Source of the DNA: Candidatus Sumerlaeales bacterium
GTDB lineage: Bacteria > Sumerlaeota > Sumerlaeia > Sumerlaeales > Sumerlaeaceae
Direction: 5' to 3'
Assembly (NCBI GenBank): GCA_036675025.1
Contig: JAKFFN010000113.1
Location: 5,337 to 69,336, forward strand
DNA: 64,000 bases
Program-made: the position numbers and the translations under genes
Part shown: in pieces, positions 8,808-57,493 of the stretch
Layout of the letters: the number at the start of each line of letters is the position of its first letter
Numbering within the stretch: position 1 is the first letter of the stretch
Notes under the pieces: generated by a model
What the model saw: the letters and a program-made list of their open reading frames with translations, nothing else
Databases searched by the model: none
What the model was told of the DNA's origin: nothing

Positions 8808-9674
8808 GTGTCTGAGAATATTAGCGAGCAACTGCTTGGCCCGATTGCACTTGTCGTGCAGGATCTCGACAGGTGCAAGCGTTACTATGAGTTGGATATT
8901 GGACTGCAGGTAATCAGGCATAGTGGCAGTGTGGTTCAAATGGGAGTGGGCAAAAAGCCATTGCTGATTCTGGAGGAAAACCCTGCTGCCGTGCGCATTC
9001 ACCGTTCTACGGGTCTTTATCACATGGCTTTCTTGTTGCCGACGCGGCGAGACCTGGCTGCGCAAATCCAGCATTTCGTGAAAAACGGTATAGGCATTTC
9101 AGGTATGTCGGACCACGGTGTGAGCGAAGCTTTATATCTGTCTGATCCTGAGGGCAACGGGATCGAAATCTACAGCGATAGACCCCGTGACAAATGGGTG
9201 TGGATAGACGGCGAGGTAGACATGCAGACGATGCCGCTGGATATCGACTCATTGCTGGCGGAACTGCCTGATAATCCACCAGCCTGGACCGGTCTGCCTG
9301 CAGATACTGTTCTGGGCCATGTGCACCTGCGGGTTTCAGACTTGTCCTCGACTACAGAGTTTTATACCAAGATTCTGGGCCTTGAGGTGACTACACGTTC
9401 GTACCCCGGGGCTATATTTCTTTCAAAAAACGGCTATCATCACCACCTCGGCCTTAATGTCTGGGGAAGTGCCGGAGCAGTCTCCCCACCGGATGGGACG
9501 GCCGGTCTAAAGCATTACACATACAGAGCTTCGAGTTCATCGGAACTGGAGCGTATCAGCCAACGCGCGAAAGACATGGGGGTAGCGTTAACAGAAGCTG
9601 ACGGTGAAAGCATTATCTTAAACGATCCGTCTGGAAACCACGTAAGAATTAAAACCGGCGACTCGGCCGACTAA
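8808..9674 (+). CDS. VOC-superfamily protein (two glyoxalase/extradiol-dioxygenase-like modules)
   Basis: A GTG start at 8808 (VSENISEQ...) gives 288 aa, which fits two tandem VOC βαβββ modules (HMAFLL, HVHLRVSDL). The longer track ORF from 8520 would overlap the macro gene and I reject it. Confidence 0.7.
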   Translation: MSENISEQLLGPIALVVQDLDRCKRYYELDIGLQVIRHSGSVVQMGVGKKPLLILEENPAAVRIHRSTGLYHMAFLLPTRRDLAAQIQHFVKNGIGISGMSDHGVSEALYLSDPEGNGIEIYSDRPRDKWVWIDGEVDMQTMPLDIDSLLAELPDNPPAWTGLPADTVLGHVHLRVSDLSSTTEFYTKILGLEVTTRSYPGAIFLSKNGYHHHLGLNVWGSAGAVSPPDGTAGLKHYTYRASSSSELERISQRAKDMGVALTEADGESIILNDPSGNHVRIKTGDSAD

Positions 9675-11929
9675 AGACCGAAAGCGCTCAGCGCTTCACC
9701 GGTGGCAACTACCAACACTGGCGACTTCTCGGCCCCGGTAGAGGCCCACGCTATCTCCGGCATACTTCCATTCGCTTTGGCTTTTCCAATGATCTTTCCA
9801 GTCCCGGTATCTGCAACAATTACATCGCTATCGCGGACTCCTACCGCGACGTAGCCGCCACATGGCGATACAGCCATTGAATCAACGTGGCTTTTTTCCG
9901 GTGCTATTAATGTTTCCCACAGCCTGTTTCCATCGGATGAAAAGGCCGCCATTACTTCCATGGCAGTTTTACTACCTGCAGCCAGGATCCTGACGGGTTT
10001 ACCTTTGGCTGAAGATACCCTAACCATGTTTGCGTAAAAGCCAGGGTCGATGTCTCTTTCCCTTTCACCGGTACTGTTGAAGATGTGAACGTCGCCCAGT
10101 GCGGAAGTCGACAGCACCTCTAACTGGCCGTCACCTTCAATATCGCCGATGCAACAATGCCAGTGGTTTCCAAGCTCCTCGTTTTTCCAAAGAAGCTGCC
10201 CGTCAGGAGCTACAGCATAGAGACCCGTATGGCCATTAAAGCCGATGACGACCTCATCCTTTCCGTCTCCATCCAGATCGCCTGCAGCGGCGTCATTCAC
10301 CCCGATCTTCTGTGGGAAGTTCCACAATGCTTCTCCATTTATGGTATCGGCAAATACGTCTGAGCGCCAGTGTATGAAGGTTACTATTTCACGCTCGGCC
10401 GTTTTATCCAACTGTGCAAGTCTGACTGAACCCCCCAAACCTTCAATTGTAAATTCGCGGACGATATTACCATTAATATCGATGTCAGCGCATTTCCCTC
10501 GGTGGCCGGAGGCTACTATCACCTTCCGCTCTTCATCATAAGCCAGACCGTTCCACCGTCCGTTAAGACGCCACAGGGTTTTCATTAGAGGGTGAGCGTC
10601 GGATGTTTCAGTAGTTTGTTCCGCTGCCGCCGATGACTGTGGTTTTTCCTTAGGCTGTGCGACAAGTTTTTCGTCGCTAAGAAGAGTCTCTATCTGGCTC
10701 GTCAAAGTATCCTTAAACCTGGGACCTACTCCTTCATGGAAAGCCTGGATTGTTCCGTCTTTACCAATGACTAAAGTAGTAGGGATTGCACGTATACCAT
10801 ACGTTTTTCCAACACCGCCATCTTTATCCAGGGCTACCTTCAGCGCAAGCTTTTCCTTAATCAGGAACTTCTCGATCTCTTCTTCGCCTTCGCGCAAATT
10901 GACCGCGTAAAATTCGACCGGTTGATCATGAAATTGCTTAGCAATCTGCTCGACAAGCGGCATGCCGCGGCGACATGGCCCGCACCATGTGGCCCAGAAA
11001 TCGAAAACAATAACTTTCCCGGCGAGTGTGGCATTATCAATATTGCCACCGTCGAGAAGGGGCATGTTAAATTGCGGAGCCGGTCGTCCGAGGTGCGACG
11101 CTATGTGTATGGATGGAGTTGCCTTCTTTCCTGATGTGCCGTGTGCTGCGGTTGCGGAGTTCCTGGCCTGCAGAGTCCAATCAAATGTGGAATCAGGTAT
11201 ATCCACGTCAAATTGCCAGTCACGAAACTCTACCGAAAGTGTAGTGGTGACATCGGTCACAGCCGGCTTGCCATGCTTCTTAATTTCATCTGCCGGCAAT
11301 ATCTCGGCTTTAACCATCAGCGGCGGATGAGTATCAGTAAACCACGCATCCCAGTGAAACTGTTTCTGTTCAAAATGCAACCGATGGCAGGATTGATCAT
11401 TCCACTGCTCCGTGCCTCCGTAGGTTCCAGTTGTTACGCCGTCCATGAGGTTGTCATAGGGCATGCTGCCAAACAGGCCCGGAGAGCAAAGAATCATGCT
11501 GCTGTCGATGACTGTTCGAACCTCGAAATTAAGAGCGATTTCCTGAATCGTAGCAGGCGCCGGAGTAGTCGTAACTTCGTCCAGTGATGATTCAGACAAA
11601 GTAAGAATCTTTCCATCGCTCACAATAGTGGATCCCCTAAGGCCCTCTTTATGGATTATTGCCAATTTATTAGGGCGCTCAACGGCGATATCAAATCGGC
11701 TGTCCAATTGGTGCTTCTGTCCACCAGACGCCATTAGTATGGATGATACGGCTTTTACTGAAATCGACCTGGCCGATTTGAGACCTTCGGAATATTGCCG
11801 AACAATTTCAGAGGCCCGTGGCTCAATGGATGGTGAACTGTCTGCAGTTACCTGAGTAGCCGCGAAAACTGGAATGCTGACTGAAAACGCGGTTAATGTT
11901 GCACACCTGAGGCCGCGGCGTAGAGTCAT
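9671..11929 (-). CDS. Secreted multidomain protein: LolA-like N-domain, TlpA/ResA-type thioredoxin and C-terminal β-propeller (FG-GAP/PQQ-like)
   Basis: A signal peptide is followed by the redoxin core FDFWATWCGPCRRGMP and then propeller repeats (DLDGDGKDEVVIG; DIEGDGQLEVL). It overlaps the VOC stop by 4 nt. Confidence 0.7.
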   Translation of the reverse strand: MTLRRGLRCATLTAFSVSIPVFAATQVTADSSPSIEPRASEIVRQYSEGLKSARSISVKAVSSILMASGGQKHQLDSRFDIAVERPNKLAIIHKEGLRGSTIVSDGKILTLSESSLDEVTTTPAPATIQEIALNFEVRTVIDSSMILCSPGLFGSMPYDNLMDGVTTGTYGGTEQWNDQSCHRLHFEQKQFHWDAWFTDTHPPLMVKAEILPADEIKKHGKPAVTDVTTTLSVEFRDWQFDVDIPDSTFDWTLQARNSATAAHGTSGKKATPSIHIASHLGRPAPQFNMPLLDGGNIDNATLAGKVIVFDFWATWCGPCRRGMPLVEQIAKQFHDQPVEFYAVNLREGEEEIEKFLIKEKLALKVALDKDGGVGKTYGIRAIPTTLVIGKDGTIQAFHEGVGPRFKDTLTSQIETLLSDEKLVAQPKEKPQSSAAAEQTTETSDAHPLMKTLWRLNGRWNGLAYDEERKVIVASGHRGKCADIDINGNIVREFTIEGLGGSVRLAQLDKTAEREIVTFIHWRSDVFADTINGEALWNFPQKIGVNDAAAGDLDGDGKDEVVIGFNGHTGLYAVAPDGQLLWKNEELGNHWHCCIGDIEGDGQLEVLSTSALGDVHIFNSTGERERDIDPGFYANMVRVSSAKGKPVRILAAGSKTAMEVMAAFSSDGNRLWETLIAPEKSHVDSMAVSPCGGYVAVGVRDSDVIVADTGTGKIIGKAKANGSMPEIAWASTGAEKSPVLVVATGEALSAFGL

Positions 11930-12028: not shown

Positions 12029-13258
12029 TTACAAGCAACTGGTTCCGCAGAAAGATGGTGCGACAGTAACTCTTCGGCGCTCGCTGAGAGTTTTCCAGGC
12101 CAGCAGGCCAAGTCCGGTGCCCATGCACAGAATCATCGCCAGGGCCATAGGCATTGAAGTTCCGTTGGCAAGCGTACTAACAGCGCCTGAAGCCAGGGCA
12201 GCGATGAGCATTTGCAGGCTACCAATGAGAGCTGAAGCTGTGCCGGCGAATTTCTTGAATGGCGCCAGGGCTAGCGCGGTTGTGTTTGGTACCAACGGAC
12301 CTAGGCTGGCCATAAACAGGAAGATGAGGCCGGAAAAGGCAACGATGCTTGTGCTATGGGCTATGCTGGCAAGAAGTAGCCCCAGGCCTGCAACTGCAGC
12401 GATACTGCCGGCAATCAGGATGAGGCGCTGCGGCGACACATACTTAAGCACCACCCGGTTCAACTGGGCCGCGCCGATGAATCCCATGGCATTTAATCCA
12501 AAGAGCCATGCAAACTGGCTGTCGCTAAGCCCCAGAATCTTCATAAACAGAAGTGGTGCGCCGCTAATGTAGGCGAAAAGTCCTGCCATGCTGAGTCCGC
12601 CCGCCAGGGAATACACAAGGAAATCACGGTTCCGGAAAACCAGGCGATAATCGCGCATGATGGCGGCCGCGTTTAGCTCTACAGTCTCATCAGGTTCCCT
12701 ACTTTCTGGCATTAGGAAATATACCCCAACCAAGAGACTGCCGCTGAACAAAGTCAGGAATCCAAAAATCCAGCGCCATCCAAGTGTTGACGAGAAAAAG
12801 CTGCCGACAGTAGGTGCTAGAATCGGTGCGACGCCCATGATCAGCATAATGGTAGAGAGGACCTTAGCCATTTCATCAGGATGATACACATCCCGTACAA
12901 TGGCCCGACTGGCCACCATGCCCACACAGGCTCCCAATGCCAGCACACCCCGCAGCCAAACGAGCCAATACAGCCCCGGTGCAAGAGCGCAGCCGAGAGC
13001 GGCCAGTGCAAAAATGCTCAGACCGATTAACATCGGGGTCCGGCGGCCGAAACGGTCGATTAGCGGACCAACCAGGATCTGTCCTATGCAGATGCCGGCG
13101 AAATAGCTCGTAAGGGAAAGCCCGACATGGGCTACGTCAGTATTAAAGTCAATTGCGATAGCGTTAAAGCCGGGAAGGTACATATCGATGGCAAACGGAC
13201 CCAGTGCACCCAGGGCCCCAAGCATTCCAAGCAGCTGAACATGTTGTTTTCGCGTCAT
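12029..13258 (-). CDS. MFS transporter (Bcr/CflA DHA1-like)
   Basis: It is predicted to have 12 TM helices. It has the MFS signature GPLIDRFGRRTPMLIG after TM2. Confidence 0.85.
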   Translation of the reverse strand: MTRKQHVQLLGMLGALGALGPFAIDMYLPGFNAIAIDFNTDVAHVGLSLTSYFAGICIGQILVGPLIDRFGRRTPMLIGLSIFALAALGCALAPGLYWLVWLRGVLALGACVGMVASRAIVRDVYHPDEMAKVLSTIMLIMGVAPILAPTVGSFFSSTLGWRWIFGFLTLFSGSLLVGVYFLMPESREPDETVELNAAAIMRDYRLVFRNRDFLVYSLAGGLSMAGLFAYISGAPLLFMKILGLSDSQFAWLFGLNAMGFIGAAQLNRVVLKYVSPQRLILIAGSIAAVAGLGLLLASIAHSTSIVAFSGLIFLFMASLGPLVPNTTALALAPFKKFAGTASALIGSLQMLIAALASGAVSTLANGTSMPMALAMILCMGTGLGLLAWKTLSERRRVTVAPSFCGTSCL

Positions 13259-13393
13259 ATCAAAAAGAGACAGTAAGGTTCTTAACTAATTCAGGGGTTT
13301 CCCCGGCTCTATGCTACATAAAACTTTGCCTTGCCCAATCCTCACTGCTTGTAGTTTCAATCCTGCGTTTGTATTTCAATTAAGGATAATGCC

Positions 13394-14206
13394 ATGAGCA
13401 ACTTAGGTCTCGATATCGCACCACGTACCTTTCGCGGTACACACAAGCACGAAGGGTACCAGGAGTTCTTCTCTCCAGAGACGAAAGAAATGCGGTATTT
13501 GAGCTACGGGCGCCTTGTGTTATCTCAGTCTGTGCCTTCTCATAAGCTCGCAACGGGCGAGAGGGAGGTAATACTTTTCGCAGTGAAGGCTCCGGTTAAA
13601 GTAAAGATTGCGGCTGAAGAGTTTGAACTGGGCGAATTTGACATGCTTTATGTTCCGCGGAACACAGAGGCTGATATTTCCGGACCAGCAGGTGCGGACG
13701 TGGTTGTAGCCGGAAGCATAAGTGAAAAAGATTCGAAGCCCCAGGTCATCCGATATGCCGACGTGAAAGATAATCCGGACTATTACTTCGACGTAGGTTC
13801 GGAGGAGCTTGGAACCAGGCGACGTATCTTTAATATGGTAGGCCATAACGTAGACGCGTCCCGACTGCTTGCCGGCTTTACCATTGGTGAAAAAAGCGCC
13901 TGGACCAGCTGGCCTCCCCATGAACATCACACCAGCAAGGAAGAGTTCTATCTCTTCTTCAATATGCCGAAGCCGGCATTTAGCGTACAGTTTGTCTATT
14001 CCAACGTAGACGATATGGAATATGCCGAGGTGGTGCAGGAAGGGGATTGTGTCACAATTCCCGGTGGCTACCATCCTACCGCAGCAGCGCCTGGCTACAG
14101 CAGCGTTTTCCTCTGGGTAATGGCTGCCTATGACCCTGAGAAGGATCGCGACTTTAAGCATGGTATAAACATTCAGCCGGATTACCAGGCTGTGAAATTC
14201 GTTTAA
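13394..14206 (+). CDS. KduI/IolB-family cupin isomerase (5-keto-4-deoxyuronate isomerase-like)
   Basis: It has bicupin architecture. It sits next to a KduD-type SDR. An AAGGAT RBS precedes the start. Confidence 0.75.
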   Translation: MSNLGLDIAPRTFRGTHKHEGYQEFFSPETKEMRYLSYGRLVLSQSVPSHKLATGEREVILFAVKAPVKVKIAAEEFELGEFDMLYVPRNTEADISGPAGADVVVAGSISEKDSKPQVIRYADVKDNPDYYFDVGSEELGTRRRIFNMVGHNVDASRLLAGFTIGEKSAWTSWPPHEHHTSKEEFYLFFNMPKPAFSVQFVYSNVDDMEYAEVVQEGDCVTIPGGYHPTAAAPGYSSVFLWVMAAYDPEKDRDFKHGINIQPDYQAVKFV

Positions 14207-14265
14207 TGCCAGTTCCCGGGGCCTGCTGGATAATCAAAAAATCCCTGTCACTGGTTGGCCGCATC

Positions 14266-16260
14266 ATGTTCAAGCCAGCTTTAGTAGTTGTGCTTGCCGT
14301 TTCGACCGGCCTTGGCAGTGCCGAGCCTTATCCGTTAACTAAAGATTACTGTAACCTTTTCGTGACCTATGCGCTGCATGCGAAATCGCTTTGGCATGAC
14401 GGTGCAGAAGGCGGCTACTGGGGCGATGGCTTCGATCATAAAAACCAGAACGGAGCCGTCCGCGGCAACTGCAATACGCTGCTGACTTACGCGATGCTGG
14501 TCCGCGGATTGGATAGTGGGTGGCTGCAACCTGCCGATGTAAAGGCACTGGAGCGGGCGGGACTCGACCGGCATGAAATGATTAAGTACATCCGGCAGAA
14601 CCTGGCTTACCTTGTTGCCCATCACAAGTCCGCCGCAGCACCGGCGGCTCCTGCGTGGGGGTATAGCTGGCAATCCTCGCTCTGGATGCAGTCGCTCGGT
14701 CCTGCCGTCTTGCTAAGCTGGAATGAGATCGGAAATGATCTAAAAGACGGAGTGGCAAGGGTGGCCGCTGCCGAAGCTGACTGGGTGGCTTCCCGACCAC
14801 CAAAAGATCACGCGCCGGGCGATACAGGTGCCGAAGAAAACGCATGGAATACCGCTGCCCCGGCAGTAGCCCTGGCGCTCAAGCCAGATGCCACAAGTTC
14901 TACCCTGTGGTGGAAAACGCTGAGATCGTATTCCGTTAATACCTTTAGCCATCCGGCAGACAAACGCTCGTCGCAGACCGTCGGGCAGGATAAAGTCTCA
15001 GAGCTTGTTTCTACCACCAATGTAAGCGCAGACTGGTCACTGATAAACCATGGCTTCTTTCACCCGGATTATGTTCAGGTATCAGGCCAGCACCTTGGAG
15101 AAGCCTGGATCATTTTAACCCTGGGCGACGCTGTGAACGGAACGAACCTCGCCGAGCAGTATGTGCCCTACAGCCTTCACAACGTCCGTGAAACATGGGA
15201 AAATGTCATGCGGCCGCTTCTCCTGCCGACCGGCGAGTTCGCGTATCCCGCAGGTAACGACTGGACATACCATTGTTCCACGAACCAGGGCTATTTCGCT
15301 TTCATTGCCACAGCACTGGATAGCTACGATGCGGCCGAAGCGGAGGCTCGGGCCCTGGAACACGTGAAGGCGCGCCGCGAAGCCGGACCAGTGGGCAGGC
15401 TATTGGGCGACAGCAACCTGGAATGGTGGTGGGAACCGCTTGTGTGCAAAAGAATGGCCACTGCGCTATTGCACCACATCCTAAGGCCGGGAATTATCAG
15501 GCGGCCCGATGTGGATGCGACCATCGACCGGCTGACCACCACAGTCCAACTGAGTGATGCCAATATCTGGTGGCACCGGACGCCTCATTATTTCTTTTCC
15601 GTCAGTTCCAAAAAGCCGAAACTCGCTTATTTTGCTCCCCTTGGCGGATACGGAGATACTGCTCCTTATACCACACTGCCGGGTAAGGGATCTCTGCTGC
15701 CAAAAGACCCATGGGATTTTCAACCTCAGGATATGAAAGGTGAAAAGCAGGTAGCCGGCGGTACTTTCTGGCGCGATGGCAAGGCAATAGGCGCTGTGCT
15801 ATGCATGCAGTTTTCCACGGTGATCCTTAGCCGCGACGGATTCCGCGCATTGCCGGTGGAGAATGATAGCCTGACTGATCCCGGTAGAACCGTTACTACG
15901 GTGGCGGGATCGCGGTTCTTTCCAGCCCTGAAGAAAAAGAAAGGCATGTGGCTTCCCGGGCCCTGGCTTTGCGTAGACAATGCCTTTGGATTCATCTCAC
16001 CCAGTGGATTCCGCTGGGATCCGGCAGGCGGATGGAACCAGAAAAGCGTAGCTGTCGATAAAGTTGGACCCCGGGCAGATGCTGGTGCGTGGCAGATGCT
16101 AACTGCTGATGAAGAAGCCACCAGGGCTACAGCGGCGGTCTTTGCGGAAGATGTTACTTCGACTGGGGTTGTGGCCATTATTAAAGATGGTCCCCAGGGA
16201 AAGCGCTACAGGGCGCGGCTGACCGACAATGGAGTTGAGTATGATGTACTCGCAGAATAA
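14266..16260 (+). CDS. Secreted hypothetical protein (candidate polysaccharide lyase or unsaturated-uronyl hydrolase)
   Basis: A signal peptide (MFKPALVVVLAVSTGLGSA) starts at the ATG at 14266. The protein is large, with no motif I can assign. It sits between the KduI-like and KduD-like genes. Confidence 0.55.
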   Translation: MFKPALVVVLAVSTGLGSAEPYPLTKDYCNLFVTYALHAKSLWHDGAEGGYWGDGFDHKNQNGAVRGNCNTLLTYAMLVRGLDSGWLQPADVKALERAGLDRHEMIKYIRQNLAYLVAHHKSAAAPAAPAWGYSWQSSLWMQSLGPAVLLSWNEIGNDLKDGVARVAAAEADWVASRPPKDHAPGDTGAEENAWNTAAPAVALALKPDATSSTLWWKTLRSYSVNTFSHPADKRSSQTVGQDKVSELVSTTNVSADWSLINHGFFHPDYVQVSGQHLGEAWIILTLGDAVNGTNLAEQYVPYSLHNVRETWENVMRPLLLPTGEFAYPAGNDWTYHCSTNQGYFAFIATALDSYDAAEAEARALEHVKARREAGPVGRLLGDSNLEWWWEPLVCKRMATALLHHILRPGIIRRPDVDATIDRLTTTVQLSDANIWWHRTPHYFFSVSSKKPKLAYFAPLGGYGDTAPYTTLPGKGSLLPKDPWDFQPQDMKGEKQVAGGTFWRDGKAIGAVLCMQFSTVILSRDGFRALPVENDSLTDPGRTVTTVAGSRFFPALKKKKGMWLPGPWLCVDNAFGFISPSGFRWDPAGGWNQKSVAVDKVGPRADAGAWQMLTADEEATRATAAVFAEDVTSTGVVAIIKDGPQGKRYRARLTDNGVEYDVLAE

Positions 16261-16273
16261 GGATAACGGATAG

Positions 16274-17032
16274 ATGGAAATGTTTCGCCTTGATGGCAAG
16301 ATAGCGCTGATTACCGGCGGCACGGCAGGGATAGGACAGGCCATTTGCGAGGGCATGGCCGCCGCAGGGGCAGATGTAGTTGCTGTTGGTTCAAGTGGAA
16401 GATTTGACGAAACGAAGGCCTCCGTTGAGATTCATGGGCGAAAGTTTTATGGGATAACCGCTGATCTGTCTGACATGGTACAGGTGCAGCAGCTTGTATC
16501 GGAAACAGTCAAAGTCCTGGGCCGTATTGACATCCTGGTCAACAACGCCGGCATCATCCGCCGAACGGCCTGCACTGACTTTTCCGAAGAAGACTGGGAT
16601 TACGTAATGAACGTAAATCTCAAAGCTGCCTTCTTCCTGGCGCAGGCTGCGGCCAAAGCTTTCCTGGAGCAGGGCAGCGGCGGGAAGATCATTAACATCG
16701 CTTCCTTGCTATCGTTCCAGGGCGGCATCCTGGTACCGTCCTACACTGCAAGTAAATCAGCATTGGCCGGCATAACAAAAACACTGGCCAACGAGTGGGC
16801 ATCAAAAAATATAAACGTAAACGCGATTGCTCCCGGCTATATTGCCACGGCCAATACCCAGGCGCTTCGTGATGACCCTGTGCGCAATAAAGCCATCCTG
16901 GATCGAATACCGGCCAATCGGTGGGGCGACGCCAGGGATATCGCCGGCATGGCCGTTTTCCTTGCTTCCCCGGCTGCAGCGTACTGCCATGGTGGAATTT
17001 ACCCGGTAGACGGCGGCTGGCTCGGCAGGTGA
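16274..17032 (+). CDS. kduD: SDR oxidoreductase, KduD-like (2-dehydro-3-deoxy-D-gluconate 5-dehydrogenase)
   Basis: It has the Rossmann motif TGGTAGIGQA and an NNAG block. The catalytic residues S, Y and K of YTASK are present. Confidence 0.8.
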   Translation: MEMFRLDGKIALITGGTAGIGQAICEGMAAAGADVVAVGSSGRFDETKASVEIHGRKFYGITADLSDMVQVQQLVSETVKVLGRIDILVNNAGIIRRTACTDFSEEDWDYVMNVNLKAAFFLAQAAAKAFLEQGSGGKIINIASLLSFQGGILVPSYTASKSALAGITKTLANEWASKNINVNAIAPGYIATANTQALRDDPVRNKAILDRIPANRWGDARDIAGMAVFLASPAAAYCHGGIYPVDGGWLGR

Positions 17033-25463: not shown

Positions 25464-28400
25464 CTAGTCGATCGTGAAGCTGCTTACGCTGACGGGGAGC
25501 GTTGCGGCTGCGCTTGAGACGTCAGGGGTCCATTCCAGCGAGAGTGGATTTTGGGAATTGGCATCCCACGCGCGGCTGCTGGCACTAGTTATATGCTTCA
25601 AGATGAGGGAATCGGCTCCCGTCGCATTGGCCGAACGTTCCACGCAAACGAAGAAGGTTTTCGTATTCGTGGCGGCTATCGACGTGGTAGCTGTCGCGGG
25701 AAGAAGTAACTGCAATTGCCCCAGCCAGTCAAGGTTCAGCAGTGTGGTACGCGCTACGATTGTGTCACTAGCCTGTTCGAACGAGCCTGAGGCATCGGTG
25801 TCGTGCCAAACCGAAATTGCAGAGACTAGGTAGTTTGCGCGGTTCGTGGACAACCTGTTACCCAACGAATCTGAAACGCCCAAATGAAAGCTGGACAGAT
25901 ATTCCAACGAATCGGTGGCGGACCCGTTATGAGTCGCGACAATCTTGAGCAGACTTGTGGTGGTGCCGGCGGCCAAACCCGCCGGAGCGACGCTAGTTGT
26001 CGCCAGCTTGAACTGCCCGCCGATATTAGGGAGCACCGAGACGTTATTCGATGAAGAGTTCGCCGCCGCGAGGTCTGCTTTGCTGTCGCCGTTAAAGTCA
26101 CCCACAGCGACGGACCAGGGAACCGTCCCCACGGAGAAGTTCGTCGCTGCGCCGAAGCTACCCGCGCCGTTGCCCAAAAGCACCGAGACGTTGTTCGAAT
26201 TCGCATTTACAGCGGCAAGGTCGACTTTGCCGTCGCCGTTAAAGTCACCCACCACAACGGACCGGGGGCTCGTCCCTGCGGAGAAGTTCGTCGCCGCGCC
26301 GAAGCCGCCCGCGCCGTTGCCCAAAAGCACCGAGACGTTGTTCGAATTCGCATTCACAGCGGCCAGGTCGGCTTTACCGTCGCCGTTAAAGTCACCCACC
26401 GCCACGGAATTGGGGCTGCTTCCGACGCTATAGTTCGTGGGGGGCCCGAAGCCGTCCGCGCCGTTGCCCAAAAGCACCGCAACGTTATTGGAGCTATTTT
26501 TCACCGTTGCGAGGTCGACTTTGCCGTCGTCGTTAAAGTCACCCACCGCGACGGACCAGGGGTTCGTCCCCACGAAGAAGTTAGTCGCCGCGCCGAAGCT
26601 GCCAGTGCCATTGCCTAAAAGCACCGAGACGTTGTCCGAATTCGCATTCACAGCCGCGAGGTCTGCTTTGCCGTCGCCGTTAAAGTCACCAACCGCAACG
26701 GAATTGGGGCTGCTTCCGACGCTATAGTTCGTGGAGGGCCCGAAGCCGCCCGCGCCGTTGCCCAAAAGCACCGAGACGTTGTTCGAATTCGCATTCGCAG
26801 CGGCGAGGTCCACTTTGCCGTCGGCGTTAAAGTCACCCACCGCGACGGAGCGAGGGCTCGTCCCCACGGAGAAGTTCATCGCAGTGCCGAGCGTAGCGCT
26901 GCGGTGGATTTGGTTGTTCAACAGCACCGATACGTTGTTTATGTTAAAGTTTGCAGCTACCAGATCCACCGCGCCGTCGGCGTTCAGGTCGCCAACAGCA
27001 ACGCCAAGGGGGGTCGTGCCCACACCCTGGCTGAGTGCTGCCTGAAAGGTGCCGTTGCCGTTACCGAGGAGGAATGACAGATTCGCACTCCCGGCGTTAG
27101 CTGTCACGAGATCGTCTTTGCCATCGGCATTCAAATCCGCAACGATCACGCGGTAAGGATTTGTTCCAGCGGGGTAACTGGTCGCCAAACCGAAAGTCCC
27201 GAAACCGCTACCGAGCAAAACCGACACGCTGTTCGATCCCTCGTTCGCTGTGGCAATGTCCACTTTGCCATCTCCGTTGAAGTCTCCAAGCGATGCCTGC
27301 CTGGGGTTTGTTCCGGTGGCATAAGTCAAAGCAGGGTTAAAAATGCCCTCGCCGATTCCCAGGTAGATGCCGACATTGTTTGATCCCTGATTCGCGACGA
27401 CGAGATCCTGCTTGCCGTCGCCGTTGAGGTCACCCGCAGCGACCGTATTGGGCGAGATGCCCGTATCGTAGTTGACTGGAGACGCAAAGGATCCGCTTCC
27501 ATCGCCTATCAGTACGGACATGGAGGAAACTCCGTTGGCCACTGCAAGGTCGGGCTTTCCATCGGAATTGAAGTCGCTTACAGCAAGGAACTGGGCGCCA
27601 GCGCCCGAGCTGAAGGAAGCGGCCGTTGCGAACCCGCCAGTTCCATTGCCGATGAGAACTGAGACGTTATTCGAGGTCATGTTTGCTGTCGCGAGGTCGG
27701 TTTTCCCATCACGGTTAAAGTCGCCGGAAACGATGGCGAACGGCCCTGTCCCGACCGAGAAGTTGGTACCCGGGCCGAAGGTTCCGTCGCCAGCGCCCAT
27801 GCGCACGGCGACGTTGTTTGCACCGTAATTGGCGACTGCGAGATCGCGTTTGCCGTCGCCGTTAAAATCGCCGAAGGTGACTGAGGAAGGGTTCGTTCCA
27901 GCGCCAACGGAAGTTGCAGCGCTAAACGTCGCGTCTGTCGGAGTGAAGGTTTGCAAGAGCACCGAGACCTGGTTTGTATAATTCGCCGTAACGAGGTCGG
28001 CCTTGCCGTCGCCGTTGAAGTCGCCCACCGCCACGGAATAGGAGAAGGTCCCGGCGCTAAAAGTCGTGCCGGATCCAAAGCTGCCAGCTCCGTTGCCCAG
28101 AAGTAGTGAGACAATATTGCCTGAAGAGAAGCTAACCGTGGCGAGGTCGGCCTTGCCGTCGCCGTTGAAGTCGCCCACCGCCACGGAAGTGGGGCTGCTT
28201 CCGACGCTAAAGTTCGTGGCGGATCCAAAGCTGCCGGCGCCGTTTCCCATGAGCACCGAGACGTTGCTGGACCAGTAGTTGGCCGTGGCGAGGTCTGCCT
28301 TGCCGTCGCCGTTGAAATCGCCCACCGCCACCGAAAACGGGGCGGTCCCAACGCTTAAGTTCGTGGCGGAGCCAAAGGCGCCGGCACCGTTGCCCAAGAG

Positions 28401-28991
28401 TACCGATACGGTATCCGAGCCATTATTGGCCGCGGCGAGGTCAGCCTTGCCGTCGTCGTTGAAGTCGCCCACCGCCACGGAATAGGGGTTGCTTCCGACG
28501 CTAAAGTTCGTGGGGGAGCCAAAGCTGCCGGCGCCGTTACCCAGCAGCACCGAGACATTACTAGAGCCATTGTTTGCAGTGGCGAGGTCGGGCTTACCGT
28601 CTCCGTTAAAGTCGCCCACCGCCACGGAATAGGGGTTGCTTCCGACGCTAAAGTTCGTGGCGGACCCGAAGCCGCCCGCGCCATTGCCCAGAAGCACCGA
28701 GACGTTATTTGAGTTAATGTTAGCCGTGGCGAGGTCGGCCTTCCCGTCGCCGTTGAAGTCACCTGCCGCCACGGAGCGCGGGGTGCTTCCGGCCGGAAAG
28801 TGTGTCGCCGCAGCAAAATTGACGCTGGCCGCCCTACATGAACATGAAACTGCCAAAATCCCGATAATTGTCAAAAGGGTGCTGAGCCTGCCACGTGAGG
28901 GTAGAATTGGATCAACAACAAACCGAACTGGGTACTTATCCTTCATTATCCAATTCTCCTGTGTATAAATGGAGGCAAGATCATCGGACAA
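25464..28991 (-). CDS. Secreted FG-GAP/VCBS-repeat protein (1175 aa)
   Basis: It has a signal peptide. More than 18 copies of a 49-aa unit (VAVGDFNGDGKADLA..AN..SNNVSVLLGNGAGSFG.ATNFSVG..P.S) occur. The C-terminal region is non-repeat. Confidence 0.85.
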   Translation of the reverse strand: MSDDLASIYTQENWIMKDKYPVRFVVDPILPSRGRLSTLLTIIGILAVSCSCRAASVNFAAATHFPAGSTPRSVAAGDFNGDGKADLATANINSNNVSVLLGNGAGGFGSATNFSVGSNPYSVAVGDFNGDGKPDLATANNGSSNVSVLLGNGAGSFGSPTNFSVGSNPYSVAVGDFNDDGKADLAAANNGSDTVSVLLGNGAGAFGSATNLSVGTAPFSVAVGDFNGDGKADLATANYWSSNVSVLMGNGAGSFGSATNFSVGSSPTSVAVGDFNGDGKADLATVSFSSGNIVSLLLGNGAGSFGSGTTFSAGTFSYSVAVGDFNGDGKADLVTANYTNQVSVLLQTFTPTDATFSAATSVGAGTNPSSVTFGDFNGDGKRDLAVANYGANNVAVRMGAGDGTFGPGTNFSVGTGPFAIVSGDFNRDGKTDLATANMTSNNVSVLIGNGTGGFATAASFSSGAGAQFLAVSDFNSDGKPDLAVANGVSSMSVLIGDGSGSFASPVNYDTGISPNTVAAGDLNGDGKQDLVVANQGSNNVGIYLGIGEGIFNPALTYATGTNPRQASLGDFNGDGKVDIATANEGSNSVSVLLGSGFGTFGLATSYPAGTNPYRVIVADLNADGKDDLVTANAGSANLSFLLGNGNGTFQAALSQGVGTTPLGVAVGDLNADGAVDLVAANFNINNVSVLLNNQIHRSATLGTAMNFSVGTSPRSVAVGDFNADGKVDLAAANANSNNVSVLLGNGAGGFGPSTNYSVGSSPNSVAVGDFNGDGKADLAAVNANSDNVSVLLGNGTGSFGAATNFFVGTNPWSVAVGDFNDDGKVDLATVKNSSNNVAVLLGNGADGFGPPTNYSVGSSPNSVAVGDFNGDGKADLAAVNANSNNVSVLLGNGAGGFGAATNFSAGTSPRSVVVGDFNGDGKVDLAAVNANSNNVSVLLGNGAGSFGAATNFSVGTVPWSVAVGDFNGDSKADLAAANSSSNNVSVLPNIGGQFKLATTSVAPAGLAAGTTTSLLKIVATHNGSATDSLEYLSSFHLGVSDSLGNRLSTNRANYLVSAISVWHDTDASGSFEQASDTIVARTTLLNLDWLGQLQLLLPATATTSIAATNTKTFFVCVERSANATGADSLILKHITSASSRAWDANSQNPLSLEWTPDVSSAAATLPVSVSSFTID
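25880..28800 (-). repeat. Intragenic tandem array of 147-bp (occasionally 156-bp) near-identical repeats
   Basis: I measured the periodicity from recurrences of the ...AGGTCGACTTTGCCGTCGCCGTTAAAGTCACCCACCGC... block at 26218, 26365, 26512, 26659 and 26806 (Δ=147). Confidence 0.8.
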
Positions 28992-30326: not shown

Positions 30327-32465
30327 ATGTATCGTTGGACTGTTACCCCGGCTTTTCTGTCAGTATTTCTTTGTTTTAATGTGATGGCTGGAGGTTCCGC
30401 ACAAACCAGCCAGACGTCAAAACTTTCCAACTTCGATTACACTGGGGTTCGTCTACTTGATAGCCATTGGAAAGACCAGCAGCAGGATGTAATTGAGTAC
30501 TACCTCTCGATTCCTACGGATAACTATCTCATTGGTTTTCGTAAACGTGCAGGCAAGCCGGCGCCGGGTACTGAACTGGGCGGCTGGTACTCAGAAGATC
30601 GGTTTAACTCCTTCGGGCAGATACTCTCCGGTTTGGCGCGATTCCATGCGGCAACTGGGGATACAAAGGTAAAATCCAAAGTCGATGAGATGGTGGCGGG
30701 ATTCGTCGAATGTATCGAGCCTGACGGATACCATTTTTACTCGCGCAACTGCAACGCTCCCCACTACGAGTTCGATAAATTTCTCGGTGGCCTTATTGAC
30801 GCCAATTTGTACTGCGATAATGCTATAGCCCGTCAGGCCATCTCGCCGATTACAGACTGGGCGATCCAGAATCTGGACCCAAGTCCAAAGTACCCACAAC
30901 TTCCCGGCCAGGCTAACGTAGAAGGTTACACTCTCACTGAGAACTTGTACAGGGCATACATCCTTACCGGTGACCAGAAGTATCGGGATTTTGGAAAGCA
31001 TTGGGAGTATTGGGGATGGTGGGATAAGTTCATCACTAAGTCCCCGGTGGATCTTTACATCCAGCCTGATGGCAACAAGATGCCTCACTACCACGCTTAC
31101 AGCCATGTAAATTCGCTTGGCGGCCTGGCCACCGGATATACGGTAACGCAAGATGACAAGTACCTGGATAGACTGATAAACTCCTATGATGTTACCAGGA
31201 AAAATCAGGCTTATGTAACAGGGGGTTATGGCCCAATGGAGCGATATACACATCGCACCGCCCTGGAAAAGGCAATCGATTATTCTAACCGTCACTTTGA
31301 AACTCAGTGTGGTTCGTGGGCTGTCTTTAAACTTTCAAAGTACCTGCAGACATTTACAGCAGACGGCCGCTACGCCGATTGGGCGGAGCAGATGATATAC
31401 AACGGCATTGGTGGCAGCATCAATATGGACGCCGGGGGAAAAGTCCAGTATTTCAGTAACTATTCATCTCGCGGCGCGAAGAAGATTAACATTAATCCGT
31501 GGTCTTGCTGCACTGGCACCCGGCCCCAGGCGGTCGCCGATTATGTTGATCAAATTTATTACAAAGACGGATCAGATCTCTATGTAAGTCTGTTCCTGCC
31601 ATCGCAAGTCTCGTGGCAAGTAGATAGCAGTACTGCAACTTTAAAAATGGAAACCGCATTTCCAGCAGAAGAACGCGTTCGCATGGTCATAGACCATGGT
31701 CCGTCAACATCGTTTACGATTAACGTACGCCGGCCATCCTGGCTGGCTGGAGATGCACAGTTCACCGTTAATGGAGAATCAATAGCAACAAGCATTTCCG
31801 CCAGCAACTGGTACCCAATCTCCAGGAGTTGGAGTAGCGGTGACGTCCTGGAATTTAACCTGCCTATGAAGCCCGAATGGAAACCGTTCAATCCTGAAAA
31901 TCCATTTCCTGGGGCAGTAACTTACGGTCCGGTGGCCCTCGCCTGGCTTTCTTCTTCAGATAATCCGTCCGAAGGCCGAACACCGGAGCAACTAATCAAT
32001 GCGCTGCAAAGGAGTACCGGCCAGTTTTCCTGGAGCGTTAATGATAGCCCGTCTACTATAGTTAAGCCCTGGTATATGGTGGGCCCTGAAGAAAAATATC
32101 ATCTGTACCTGGATCCAAAAACCGGGCAGTACGTTGATCTCGGAAATGGATGGCGAACCAATGAAATCCACATGATTTCTGATCTTCCGAAATCCGAAGC
32201 AACTTTCTCTTTTGAAGGCACGGGCGTCCGTTTCCATTACTCCCGGTTTGATGATGCCGGAATTGCCAAGGTCCTGGTCGATGGTAAAGAAGTTGCGCTT
32301 ATAGACCAATATGCACCAGGGCGAAACATTGATGCTCATCGTGATATTACAGAGCTACCTGATGGCAAACACACGCTCGCTGTTATTTGTAGTGGTGAGA
32401 AGAATCCCGCTTCAAAGGCACGAGTGATAAATATTAAGCGGTTTGAAGTTCTTAACGGCAGTTAA
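30327..32465 (+). CDS. Glycoside hydrolase family 127-like (DUF1680; β-L-arabinofuranosidase-type), secreted
   Basis: It has a signal peptide. It has the GH127/HypBA1-like length and blocks. The conserved Cys cluster region (CCTG...) is retained. Confidence 0.7.
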   Translation: MYRWTVTPAFLSVFLCFNVMAGGSAQTSQTSKLSNFDYTGVRLLDSHWKDQQQDVIEYYLSIPTDNYLIGFRKRAGKPAPGTELGGWYSEDRFNSFGQILSGLARFHAATGDTKVKSKVDEMVAGFVECIEPDGYHFYSRNCNAPHYEFDKFLGGLIDANLYCDNAIARQAISPITDWAIQNLDPSPKYPQLPGQANVEGYTLTENLYRAYILTGDQKYRDFGKHWEYWGWWDKFITKSPVDLYIQPDGNKMPHYHAYSHVNSLGGLATGYTVTQDDKYLDRLINSYDVTRKNQAYVTGGYGPMERYTHRTALEKAIDYSNRHFETQCGSWAVFKLSKYLQTFTADGRYADWAEQMIYNGIGGSINMDAGGKVQYFSNYSSRGAKKININPWSCCTGTRPQAVADYVDQIYYKDGSDLYVSLFLPSQVSWQVDSSTATLKMETAFPAEERVRMVIDHGPSTSFTINVRRPSWLAGDAQFTVNGESIATSISASNWYPISRSWSSGDVLEFNLPMKPEWKPFNPENPFPGAVTYGPVALAWLSSSDNPSEGRTPEQLINALQRSTGQFSWSVNDSPSTIVKPWYMVGPEEKYHLYLDPKTGQYVDLGNGWRTNEIHMISDLPKSEATFSFEGTGVRFHYSRFDDAGIAKVLVDGKEVALIDQYAPGRNIDAHRDITELPDGKHTLAVICSGEKNPASKARVINIKRFEVLNGS

Positions 32466-33507: not shown

Positions 33508-36015
33508 TCAATCGGTACTCATGTCCTCTTCAGCCATGATTTCAAGCTGAGACACCATCCGTTTGATCCTGTCGGCGTAGCTTTCGCTCGAAACGTGAGC
33601 TGTTGCACTCGCCATTCGACTTGCCCATAGGGGGAAAGCCAGTGGCGTAAACCTTGTCACACGGATAAGGCGAAGCTGTGTCTCCTGCAGGCGTCTCAGC
33701 GCCTCTCCCAGACGAACTACCTCCATTTGCCGTTCCATCACTTCGCGCCGTGCCTGGTCAAGCAGCAGGTTTTCCGGATCGTACTTGTTAAAAACATCAA
33801 AAAGCAGGCTGGTAGAAGATTGCACCTGCCTGGCAACTTTAGGTGCACCCGGGTAGCCTGTAAATATAAGTCCCGCCACCCGCGCCACCTCGCGAAACTG
33901 TCGTTTTGCCAGTTCGGTCGCATTAATTGACGCAAACAGATCATCCAGCAGCCGGTCCGGCGAAAGGATCTGGCGCCACGCCTTCTCATCCATTTTCAAA
34001 TCGATAGGCTCATGGCTCAAGAGTTCAAACCCATAGTCGTTCATGGTCACGCCGATTGTGCGCGGGTTCAACTGGGAGACTCTCCAGGCAACCAGGCCGC
34101 CAAGCCCTTCATGCACGAAGTGCCCTTCGAAGGGGTACAGGAAAACGTGGTAGCCCTCCCGGCTGCGTATGAACTCAATAAGCAGTTCATCCTTTGCCGG
34201 TATTACTGACCAGTGTGCCTGGATATCCAGCACCGGTTTTACCTTTTCCATCTCAGGCCCCTCGAAGTTCCCATGCCGTGCATCATCCAGTTTATCACGC
34301 ACTGCCTGGCCTAACTGGCTGGTAATGGGCATGCGGCTTCCGCCCCAGGTCGGCAGCGCGCCGCTCTGCTTCTCTGCGAACTTTACCGTCGCCGTCATTT
34401 CCTTAAGGCGCACCAGTTCAAGCAGCCGGCCCGCAAATACGAAGCAGTCGCCGTTCTTCAGTTTCGCCAGGAAGTTCTCTTCCACTGTGCCCAGGATGCC
34501 GCCGCCCTGCAGCTTTAAGGCGATGTTCATATCTGATGTAATTGTGCCGATATTAAGGCGATGAAGCTTCGCCATCTTATCACTGGAAATTGCCCAGCGG
34601 TTATCGTACTTATGAACCTTCTTGAACTGGTCGTAAGCTCGCAGCGCCTGCCCGCCATGGCTCAGGAAATCAATTACCCAATCCCATTCCTGCCGAGTCA
34701 GTTTTCGGTAAGACCATGCCTTACGCACTTCATCAAAAAGCTGCTCTTCGTCAAAACCTTCGCCGGCGGCGAGGGTCACTACGTGCTGAGTCAGCACGTC
34801 AATCGGGCGATCCGGAGGAATCCGCAGTTCTATCCGGCCCGCCTCGGCGGCGTCGCGGGTTGCAGAATACTCCACCAGTTCAAACGCGTTAGTGGGCACG
34901 CAGAGCACCCGGCTCACGCCCCCCGGCTGGTGACCACTGCGCCCCGCGCGCTGAAGCAGGCGCGCCACGCCCTTAGGGCTGCCGATCTGGATCACCTGGT
35001 CCACAGTGGGAAAATCTACACCAAGATCCAGGCTCGACGTACACACTACGCACTTGATCACGCCTGTGCGCAGGCCGTCTTCCACAGTCTCCCTGATCTC
35101 CCGGTCCAGTGAACCGTGGTGCAGAGCCATTCTGTCCTTCCAGCGCGGTCCAGCTTTCATGATCGATTGATACCAGAGCTCTGCCTGGGATCGCGTGTTA
35201 GTAAAAACCAGGGTCGTCTTTGCCCCGGAAATAGCTTTAACAACATCAGGAAGCAACCGCAGCCCGATGTGACCAGACCACGGAAACCGTTCGATGTTCT
35301 CCGGCAGCATGGTCACGATTTCGGTGATCTTGTCGTTCTCTGCGCGAATCAAAACTTTGTCACGCCTGCCTGTAGCCGTAAGTACATCCAAGGCCATGTC
35401 CAGGTTCCCAAGTGTTGCGCTAAGGCCCCAGATCCGCATGTCCGGCAGCCACGTCCTCAACCGCGCCAGGGCCAACTCCGTCTGGGTGCCCCGCTTATTG
35501 CCCAGGAGTTCATGCCACTCGTCCACAACAACGGCTTTCACAGTACCCAGCAGCTCACGCGTGTTGTCGTAAGTCAGCAGCACCGAAAGGCTTTCGGGCG
35601 TCGTCACCAGTGCCGTAGGAAGCTTCGTTTTCTGACGCGCCTTCCGTGATGCCGACGTATCACCTGTTCGTTTTTCCAGCGTCCAGGGCATGCCAAGGCC
35701 TTCGATTGGTGCACGCAGCGCCGAAAGCGTATCGTTGGCAAGAGCGCGTAGGGGAGTGATCCACAGCACTTGGGTCGGCGCTGGATCTTTCAGGTTCCAT
35801 TGCATCTTATCGGGATTGTCAGCCAGCCACTGCGATACCGGACCCAACCACACAGAGTATGTCTTTCCCATGCCTGTGGGCGCGTTTACCAGTCCATCCG
35901 CGCCTTCGGCAAAAGCAGCCCATGCTTCCTGTTGAAACTCGAACGGCTGCCAGCGCTTTCGCCTGAACCATTTCGCCAGTTCCGGGTGCAGGGTATCTGT
36001 TGTGGCCGTTGTCAT
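33508..36015 (-). CDS. Ligase-associated DEXH-box helicase (Lhr-core type)
   Basis: It has a Walker A (APTGMGKT), DEWH, SATLGN and a helicase C domain plus Lhr-specific C-terminal domains. Its start overlaps the ligase stop. Confidence 0.85.
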   Translation of the reverse strand: MTTATTDTLHPELAKWFRRKRWQPFEFQQEAWAAFAEGADGLVNAPTGMGKTYSVWLGPVSQWLADNPDKMQWNLKDPAPTQVLWITPLRALANDTLSALRAPIEGLGMPWTLEKRTGDTSASRKARQKTKLPTALVTTPESLSVLLTYDNTRELLGTVKAVVVDEWHELLGNKRGTQTELALARLRTWLPDMRIWGLSATLGNLDMALDVLTATGRRDKVLIRAENDKITEIVTMLPENIERFPWSGHIGLRLLPDVVKAISGAKTTLVFTNTRSQAELWYQSIMKAGPRWKDRMALHHGSLDREIRETVEDGLRTGVIKCVVCTSSLDLGVDFPTVDQVIQIGSPKGVARLLQRAGRSGHQPGGVSRVLCVPTNAFELVEYSATRDAAEAGRIELRIPPDRPIDVLTQHVVTLAAGEGFDEEQLFDEVRKAWSYRKLTRQEWDWVIDFLSHGGQALRAYDQFKKVHKYDNRWAISSDKMAKLHRLNIGTITSDMNIALKLQGGGILGTVEENFLAKLKNGDCFVFAGRLLELVRLKEMTATVKFAEKQSGALPTWGGSRMPITSQLGQAVRDKLDDARHGNFEGPEMEKVKPVLDIQAHWSVIPAKDELLIEFIRSREGYHVFLYPFEGHFVHEGLGGLVAWRVSQLNPRTIGVTMNDYGFELLSHEPIDLKMDEKAWRQILSPDRLLDDLFASINATELAKRQFREVARVAGLIFTGYPGAPKVARQVQSSTSLLFDVFNKYDPENLLLDQARREVMERQMEVVRLGEALRRLQETQLRLIRVTRFTPLAFPLWASRMASATAHVSSESYADRIKRMVSQLEIMAEEDMSTD

Positions 36016-57405: not shown

Positions 57406-57493
57406 TGGTGCCGGAGACAGGACTTGAACCTGCACAGCCTTGCGACTACTAGAACCTGAATCTAGCGCGTCTGCCAATTCCGCCACTCCGGCA
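57406..57493 (-). tRNA. tRNA-Leu (anticodon CAG), 88 nt incl. encoded CCA
   Basis: The minus-strand sequence is GCCGGAGTGGCGGAATTGGCAGACGCGCTAGATTCAGGTTCTAGTAGTCGCAAGGCTGTGCAGGTTCAAGTCCTGTCTCCGGCACCA. It has a 7-bp acceptor stem, a long variable arm, the anticodon loop TTCAGGT and a GTTCAAGTC T-loop. It closely matches the D and anticodon arms of E. coli leu tRNA(CAG). Confidence 0.9.

Follow-up and report, generated by a model that had tools for sequence, protein, structure and literature searches.

An unannotated toroid-plus-β-sandwich protein encoded between KduI-type and KduD genes in a Sumerlaeales bacterium, a possible secreted uronate β-eliminase

A 64,000-nucleotide stretch of DNA from Candidatus Sumerlaeales bacterium (GenBank assembly GCA_036675025.1, contig JAKFFN010000113.1, positions 5,337 to 69,336 of the forward strand; hereafter the window, in whose numbering positions are given) contains three closely packed genes on the same strand that form a single tight operon. 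The outer two encode a KduI/IolB-family isomerase and the dehydrogenase KduD, and the gene between them encodes a protein, here called X, for which no family could be found. The three gene products may together convert a uronate-containing glycan to 2-keto-3-deoxygluconate (KDG), with X serving as a secreted uronate β-eliminase, a reading to which we give slightly less than an even chance. An earlier note on this DNA had seen in the middle gene a new lyase or hydrolase family tied to KduI and KduD, and had brought in a neighboring transporter and a GH127 gene as well. The core of that proposal is backed by the predicted fold, the lack of a family match, the conserved order of the trio and the existence of fusions to GH88 and DUF4861 domains, but its transporter and GH127 parts did not stand.

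All four open reading frames (ORFs) reported in the earlier note for the interval 12029-17032, and their coordinates, were recovered in the ORF list (Table 1). The last base of the TAA stop codon of the kduI-like gene is also the first base of an ATG at 14206 (TAATG), and 13 nt separate the stop codon of X from the ATG of kduD. Because the 1-nt kduI/X overlap recurs, as TGATG, in the closest relative (locus L090) and the source database entry for X (P0001) is 684 aa long, the ATG at 14206 is probably the true start of X; the residue numbers used here follow the 664-aa form beginning at the ATG at 14266. A promoter and terminator scan of the locus gave background levels, there is no Rfam match close to it, and the intergenic region upstream of the kduI-like gene has no inverted repeat.

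The KduI-like protein belongs to the KduI/IolB family, scoring 118.8 bits with PF04962 against a Pfam cutoff of 23.9, but it is not an equivalog of canonical KduI or IolB, as it falls short of the cutoffs of both models (NF002091 for KduI, 47.5 bits against 250; TIGR04378 for IolB, 102.7 against 205). Its top match in the PDB is the IolB-like 2qjv (4e-11), with KduI structures reaching only ~5e-5. Its cupin region has an HxH motif (H-E-H-H from residue 176), and GGYHP begins at residue 224. It is presumed to be the 4-deoxy-L-threo-5-hexosulose-uronate ketol-isomerase of the module, drawn from a divergent subfamily. KduD scores 375.5 bits with TIGR01832, above the equivalog cutoff of 338.85, and has Pectobacterium KduD (4z9y) as top PDB match (2.4e-86). 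Neither a PfkB kinase (kdgK) nor a 2-keto-3-deoxy-6-phosphogluconate (KDPG) aldolase (kdgA) was found among the scanned ORFs of the window, in agreement with the earlier remark that neither gene is nearby.

That the middle gene has a signal peptide and no placeable family was likewise borne out. Its N-terminus before E20, MFKPALVVVLAVSTGLGSA, read directly from the sequence, has the look of a Sec signal peptide, a signal peptide or a lipobox occupies the equivalent position in most orthologues, and X is predicted to be exported to the periplasm or the cell surface. X has no match in Pfam (2025) or NCBIfam (2026) and, searched alone, none at E<=10 among the PDB (2026) sequences; phmmer and a 45-sequence family profile run against all PDB sequences yielded nothing relevant, with two chance matches at E ~1. 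Profile-to-profile comparison of the X family by hhalign gave a probability of 0.6% with the PL17-like lyase of locus L002, less than 1% with a DUF4861 protein and 0.2% with the GH88 domain of the fusion protein P0066.

The family is nevertheless sizeable. A word-indexed search of 5.8 billion proteins returned 64 relatives, those with names being called ‘hypothetical protein’ or labeled by an accessory discoidin or LamG domain, and a second such search, made with the family profile, agreed with the first and contributed just one more fusion protein (P0209). Searched exhaustively with the profile, 1.84 billion cluster representatives gave 1,425 matches at E<=1e-3, 538 of them at E<=1e-30. GTDB species representatives encode 242 relatives, mostly in Sumerlaeota, Planctomycetota, Verrucomicrobiota, Armatimonadota and Bacteroidales, and a few are from cultured organisms (Rhodoferax, Hydrogenophaga, Halocatena). 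The family is unannotated in Pfam, NCBIfam, the PDB and the source-database names, UniRef included. With Pfam, NCBIfam and the PDB as proxies for CAZy, what is new is probably the unannotated sequence family, the architecture being known and the chemistry probably so.

An AlphaFold2 model of X built on 45 family members has a mean predicted local distance difference test score (pLDDT) of 93.2 and a predicted template modeling score (pTM) of 0.93; residues 1-20 stand at a pLDDT of ~52-54. The helical domain consists of about twelve long helices and the second domain is all-β, so that the α/α-toroid plus β-sandwich for which the earlier note had advised looking is present in the model, and it is also present in the leading structural matches. 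The top 32 Foldseek matches are all of the toroid plus β-sandwich class, the best being to PL8 (E 3e-10, TM ~0.5). With both domains considered, only lyases and an epimerase align across 395-488 residues, and GH146 reaches an E of 1.6e-2 at best. With the toroid alone, PL8 is not within the 60 best structural matches. An N-terminal (α/α)5-6 toroid followed by a C-terminal antiparallel β-sandwich is the architecture of the PL8/12/15/17/21/23/35/39 class of polysaccharide lyases; X has it, and matches neither Lyase_8, Hepar_II_III, Alginate_lyase or related models nor solved members of the class. The toroid also corresponds to the (α/α)6 barrel of the glycoside hydrolase families GH88 and GH105. 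A peptidase or other non-carbohydrate fold was rejected, as the fold matches are overwhelmingly to carbohydrate-active enzymes.

Conservation was scored per position in an alignment of 191 family members, the distant paralogous branch included. The polar residues conserved in at least 90% are R66 (99%), H120, E170 (98%), E190 (98%), E191 (90%), N192 (96%), N225, D256, N261 (98%), H262 (100%), H266 (91%), Y269 (99%), D332 (98%) and R541, and there are conserved tryptophans at W131 (100%), W135, W194 (97%), W215 and W333. The codon for R66 and the translations of the stretches 190-194 and 261-269 were confirmed. Most of the conserved residues sit at, or in loops just before, the starts of alternate toroid helices, which is the usual (α/α)6 active-site signature. 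The catalytic set of the lyase class is a Tyr, a His and a neutralizing Asn. In PL8 and PL23 the Tyr follows the His by 8-9 residues within the helical domain; in PL12, 15, 17, 21, 35 and 39 the β-domain supplies a His (PMC12088678, Table 4). In X, H262 lies 70 residues after N192, and Y269 a further 7 on; N192, N261, H262 and Y269 are 96-100% conserved, all are in the toroid, and their order and spacing, compared by sequence alone, are like those of PL8 and PL23. The β-domain has no conserved His or Tyr in the 191 sequences, and since a β-domain His is needed in PL12, 15, 17, 21, 35 and 39, only the PL8/PL23-like arrangement remains. Such a catalytic constellation is possible in X, with H262 and Y269, by analogy, as the candidate base/acid pair. 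The five conserved acidic residues E170, E190, E191, D256 and D332 fit a metal site or a glycosidase alike.

The order kduI, X, kduD recurs in four other lineages (loci L090, L002, L007 and L092), where X is 44-60% identical to that of the window. Of the distinct orthologue contexts, about 14 in all, five show the trio in exact form and six have a KduI-family gene within ~8 kb (L002 and L011 are one Sumerlaeaceae contig, from a metagenome-assembled genome, and were counted once). The KduI-like protein of the window is 81, 71, 72 and 58% identical to the product of the gene before X in L090, L002, L007 and L092, and its KduD is 75, 71 and 67% identical to that of the gene after X in L090, L002 and L092. 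The trio of L090 (X 60% identical) is preceded by a gene for TAL-PGI, a transaldolase-phosphoglucose-isomerase fusion of ~935 aa. L002 and L007 (X 48-49% identical) have a divergent GH42 gene, DUF4861, the trio and an unannotated ~620-aa protein, with an X paralogue of ~710 aa, a PL17-like lyase and a sugar-transporter-like member of the major facilitator superfamily (MFS) further downstream, and in L092 (X 44% identical) the order is DUF4861, the trio, the ~620-aa protein and the X paralogue. Larger loci with DUF4861 thus make up three of the four (L002, L007, L092), and two of them (L002, L007) also have the PL17-like lyase.

Elsewhere the association is looser. L006 has two DUF4861 genes and a different KduI at a distance of ~4 kb from X, and no kdu genes are near X in L003, L004 or L008. 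The close relatives L001 and L091 have X alone between TAL-PGI and plsX, with no kduI or kduD and with downstream synteny that matches the window. Because the closest relatives keep X between TAL-PGI and plsX with or without the kdu genes, kduI and kduD have been gained or lost around a resident X. X follows the TAL-PGI fusion and precedes plsX in three loci (L001:5117-10001, L091:1355-6342 and L090:408-6878); upstream of the window module an MFS gene and a thioredoxin/β-propeller gene stand in place of TAL-PGI.

Two proteins, P0066 (1333 aa) and P0209 (1359 aa), are fusions of GH88, DUF4861 and X behind an N-terminal signal peptide. Also encoded at the P0066 locus (L089) are a TonB-receptor-like protein and a discoidin-containing PL9-type β-helix protein. 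Among DUF4861 proteins, BT3233 is important to B. thetaiotaomicron when it grows on three glycosaminoglycans, namely chondroitin sulfate, hyaluronan and heparin (PMC8121099). X-family members carry F5/8-type-C carbohydrate-binding domains, and the neighbors of distant members include sulfatases, FGE-type sulfatase maturases, GH29 fucosidases, Gfo/Idh/MocA oxidoreductases, a GH78-like gene and an alginate-lyase-type gene. Taken as a whole, the context of the family indicates a role in degrading acidic glycans that are often sulfated.

Several observations on the relatives and companions of X may be recorded here. Distant members at 24-29% identity occur in cultured organisms: the haloarchaeon Halocatena marina (L016), Rhodoferax saidenbachensis (L026), which has a GH78-like rhamnosidase gene near its member, Hydrogenophaga taeniospiralis (L032), where the next gene has an alginate-lyase domain, and Bacteroidales bacterium F22 (L031), where the next gene encodes a sulfatase. 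The X paralogue, X-prime, lies a few genes downstream of X in the larger loci and directly after it in L003, and has no copy in the window; most of the distant members from Planctomycetota and Verrucomicrobiota are nearer to X-prime (33-38% identity) than to X (28-33%). The unannotated protein of 612-677 aa, encoded directly after kduD or X in seven loci and not in the window, has no Pfam or PDB sequence match and is a second unannotated family accompanying X.

If X is a β-eliminase, one end of the toroid would have a pocket lined with Trp that binds a uronate residue, whose carboxylate would be neutralized by N192 and possibly R66. H262 and Y269 would between them abstract the C5 proton and protonate the leaving O4, so that the (1→4) glycosidic bond would be broken by β-elimination and a 4,5-unsaturated uronate left at the new non-reducing end. 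PL22, PL15 and PL17 enzymes take oligouronates to the unsaturated monomer in pectin and alginate systems. Were X exolytic, it would release that monomer directly, and the operon by itself would lead from an oligouronate to KDG. The free unsaturated uronate would open to 4-deoxy-L-threo-5-hexosulose-uronate and, after import by some transporter, the KduI-like cupin would isomerize this to 2,5-diketo-3-deoxygluconate, which KduD would reduce to KDG; the subsequent kinase and aldolase would be encoded elsewhere.

The GH88-DUF4861-X fusions favor a lyase because GH88 needs an unsaturated uronate end, which a lyase makes. A number of points weigh against it. X lacks sequence similarity to any polysaccharide lyase family, even profile against profile, the catalytic roles proposed for its residues derive from their order and spacing, and its β-domain has no counterpart of the His required in six of the lyase families. 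Its five acidic residues, 90-98% conserved, would be unusual in an anion pocket unless metal is bound, and are typical of glycoside hydrolases. Several X loci already have another lyase, PL17-like or PL9-like, and in L001 and L091 X occurs without its kdu partners. It is mainly the acidic residues that keep alive the alternative that X is a glycoside hydrolase, either a GH88/GH105-like unsaturated-uronyl hydrolase that hydrates the 4,5-double bond and so frees the monomer for KduI and KduD, or an exo-glycosidase acting on the same glycan to take off a neutral sugar. Those residues and the many conserved tryptophans are typical of glycosidase pockets, the direct supplier of KduI in known pathways is often GH88 or GH105, the minimal window module has no other monomer-releasing enzyme, and a GH88 followed by DUF4861 would likewise look like an (α/α)6 barrel with a mutarotase-like sandwich. 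However, X matches neither PF07470 nor any GH model, hhalign gives it next to no relation to GH88 (the 0.2% above), the long two-domain alignments are confined to lyases and the epimerase, with GH146 far behind, and the fusion of X to a bona fide GH88, or its location beside one, in some genomes argues against a redundant unsaturated-uronyl hydrolase. We consider a hydrolase unlikely, though not negligible as an alternative.

Proton abstraction at C5 could instead expel the free 4-OH of a saturated non-reducing-end uronate, making X a uronate 4,5-dehydratase comparable to GH154 (BcGDH) or P29_PDnc of the ulvan pathway, with the product passing to GH88/GH105 or to spontaneous chemistry. GH154 dehydratases are (α/α)6 proteins whose genes co-localize with those for GH88/GH105 (PMC12269599), and the GH88-DUF4861-X fusions are the pairing expected of a dehydratase and an unsaturated-uronyl hydrolase. 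This possibility is distinctly unlikely, as GH154 structures are far down the match list and have no sequence relation to X by profile against the PDB, no GH88 or GH105 is present among the scanned window ORFs to use the product, and the two-domain lyase architecture is a better fit. Membership of GH154 itself was rejected: the family ranks weakly among the structural matches, and X is not related by sequence to BcGDH or BT3677 or to their Tyr/Tyr/Arg active site.

A remodeling rather than a cleaving role, as a polymer-level uronate C5-epimerase like dermatan-sulfate epimerase or as an AGE-superfamily-like sugar 2-epimerase or isomerase, has the fold matches as its support, and R66, H120, H262 and H266 resemble the Arg and His residues that we take to be catalytic in AGE-type enzymes. 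AGE enzymes are known as cytoplasmic and single-domain, whereas X is two-domain and predicted to be exported. Moreover, an epimerase would leave the position of X between KduI and KduD unexplained, since both need the 4-deoxy-5-keto monomer, and the GH88 fusion points to making or using an unsaturated end, so that this role appears very unlikely. There are relatives that are very large surface proteins built of several domains, among them PATR, Ig-like or discoidin modules, as might be expected if X were a non-catalytic cell-surface glycan-binding or scaffold protein, but the conservation of fourteen polar residues and five tryptophans in at least 90% of the sequences, at alternate toroid helix starts, and the operon linkage with two enzymes retained in relatives make that hard to credit.

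A broader proposal, held with somewhat more reserve than the β-eliminase reading for the window, is that X founds a CAZy-level family of uronate β-eliminases, lyases or dehydratases, of ~1,400 clusters in Sumerlaeota, Planctomycetota, Verrucomicrobiota, Armatimonadota, Bacteroidales and a few Proteobacteria and haloarchaea. Its members would have the lyase scaffold with a toroid constellation of their own (R66, E170, E190-E191-N192, H262 and Y269, possibly with metal) and act on an acidic glycan, and together with the divergent KduI-type isomerase X would form part of a new three-gene route to KDG. If X is a lyase or a dehydratase, it would represent a new enzyme family for the degradation of acidic polysaccharides, widespread in little-studied soil and aquatic degraders among Planctomycetes-Verrucomicrobia-Chlamydiae (PVC) bacteria, Armatimonadota and Sumerlaeota, in which a large share of carbohydrate-active genes is ‘hypothetical’. 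Some 1,400 protein clusters would become annotatable, and with them the partner families (the ~620-aa protein, X-prime, DUF4861 and the 270-aa KduI/IolB subfamily), and X would add one more case for tracing how a single scaffold gave rise to toroid lyases, GH88/GH105 hydrolases and uronate dehydratases.

Two neighbors that the earlier note had linked to the module are better left out of it. The adjacent divergent transporter, suggested as the oligosaccharide importer, scores 280.9 bits with TIGR00710 (Bcr/CflA subfamily) against a cutoff of 200.9 and only 26.8 bits with Sugar_tr. It has no homologue in the related loci at E<1e-5, TAL-PGI or DUF4861 being upstream of kduI there in its place. 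Being of the Bcr/CflA efflux type and missing beside the trio in all relatives, it was rejected as importer for the module. The GH127 gene was also rejected as part of the locus, since ~13 kb of unrelated genes intervene, among them the housekeeping genes rpmF, plsX and secA, and genes for an endonuclease, a large FG-GAP protein and a radical-SAM protein.

Of the other features of the window (Table 1), the 752-aa product of 9671-11929 has an unusual architecture for a thiol-disulfide oxidoreductase. The helicase, ligase and 354-aa protein genes are in a row with overlapping or abutting ends and resemble a DNA-repair cassette.

Table 1. Coordinates of the operon, of domains and motifs of X, and of other features in the window and in related loci (locus coordinates carry the locus name)
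Feature	Position	Strand	Basis or description
Bcr/CflA-type MFS, 409 aa, divergent	12029-13258	-	TIGR00710
KduI/IolB-family bicupin isomerase, 270 aa	13394-14206	+	PF04962
Protein X, 684 aa from ATG 14206 or 664 aa from ATG 14266	14206-16260	+	ORF
KduD, 2-dehydro-3-deoxy-D-gluconate 5-dehydrogenase, short-chain dehydrogenase/reductase, 252 aa	16274-17032	+	TIGR01832
X, signal-peptide-like N-terminus MFKPALVVVLAVSTGLGSA, predicted cleavage before E20	14266-14322	+	read from sequence
X, (α/α)6 toroid domain, residues 25-406	14338-15483	+	AlphaFold2 model
X, C-terminal antiparallel β-sandwich, residues 425-662	15538-16251	+	AlphaFold2 model
X, R66, candidate carboxylate ligand or catalytic residue	14461-14463	+	99% of 191 members
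X, E190-E191-N192-A-W194 motif, N192 a candidate carboxylate neutralizer	14833-14847	+	conservation; role putative
X, N261-H262-G-F-F-H266-P-D-Y269 motif at start of helix 267-291	15046-15072	+	conservation
752-aa secreted-looking protein	9671-11929	-	DUF2092, thioredoxin/AhpC-TSA (ResA-like, WCGPC) and FG-GAP/WD40-like β-propeller
1175-aa protein	25464-28991	-	nearly all FG-GAP/VCBS-type repeats (18 FG-GAP_3 stretches, 580 bits)
GH127 gene	30327-32465		
Lhr-type helicase (835 aa), ATP-dependent DNA ligase (532 aa), 354-aa protein	33508-38674	-	354-aa protein without Pfam match
798-aa protein	57652-60048	+	Golvesin_C, Amidase_3 (N-acetylmuramoyl-L-alanine amidase) and fn3
tRNA gene just upstream of the 798-aa protein gene	57409-57492	-	
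ORF, one of five of ~300-480 aa	32479-33375	-	no Pfam match at E<=1e-5
ORF, one of five of ~300-480 aa	43186-44619	-	no Pfam match at E<=1e-5
ORF, one of five of ~300-480 aa	46120-47478	+	no Pfam match at E<=1e-5
ORF, one of five of ~300-480 aa	50504-51895	+	no Pfam match at E<=1e-5
ORF, one of five of ~300-480 aa	56417-57340	+	no Pfam match at E<=1e-5
P0066	L089:4926-8927		GH88-DUF4861-X fusion
X-prime, ~705-750 aa	L002:13005-15143; L007:12422-14539; L008:12056-14305; L092:12792-15011; L003:9984-12104		X paralogue
Unannotated protein, ~612-677 aa	L002:10945-12816; L007:10431-12269; L006:9966-11999; L008:10100-12028; L092:10925-12784; also L010, L062		

Set against the known enzymes of similar fold, X is ~9-13% identical to the PL35 glycosaminoglycan lyases (BcPL35, 9O3Q; GAGase II, 8KHV), with no hidden Markov model or profile similarity and with a toroid ~50 residues longer; PL35 uses a β-domain His (H401) and binds Mn2+ there (PMC12088678), whereas the β-domain of X has no conserved His. 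PL8 (chondroitin AC, hyaluronate and xanthan lyases) and PL23 also show no sequence similarity to X, in which the N-to-H spacing is longer. X differs from GH88 and GH105 in its extra β-sandwich domain and has no Pfam or hhalign relation to them. The GH154/BcGDH β-glucuronate dehydratases, also (α/α)6 enzymes, act on uronates by β-elimination and are found paired with GH88/GH105; their founding member, BT3677, expressed as residues 30-673, includes a second domain (PMC12269599).

As a module, the window genes depart from the classical kduI-kduD arrangement in that X is in none of PL22, PL15 and PL17 and is apparently exported, the isomerase is a divergent KduI/IolB member, and kdgK, kdgA and a uronate transporter are not adjacent. 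In pectin and alginate degraders the classical modules join kduI and kduD to ogl (PL22) or to PL15/PL17, so that the monomer-liberating lyase is encoded beside the isomerase and the reductase. The logic of the window module would be the same, an enzyme for the unsaturated monomer adjoining the isomerase and the reductase that lead to KDG.

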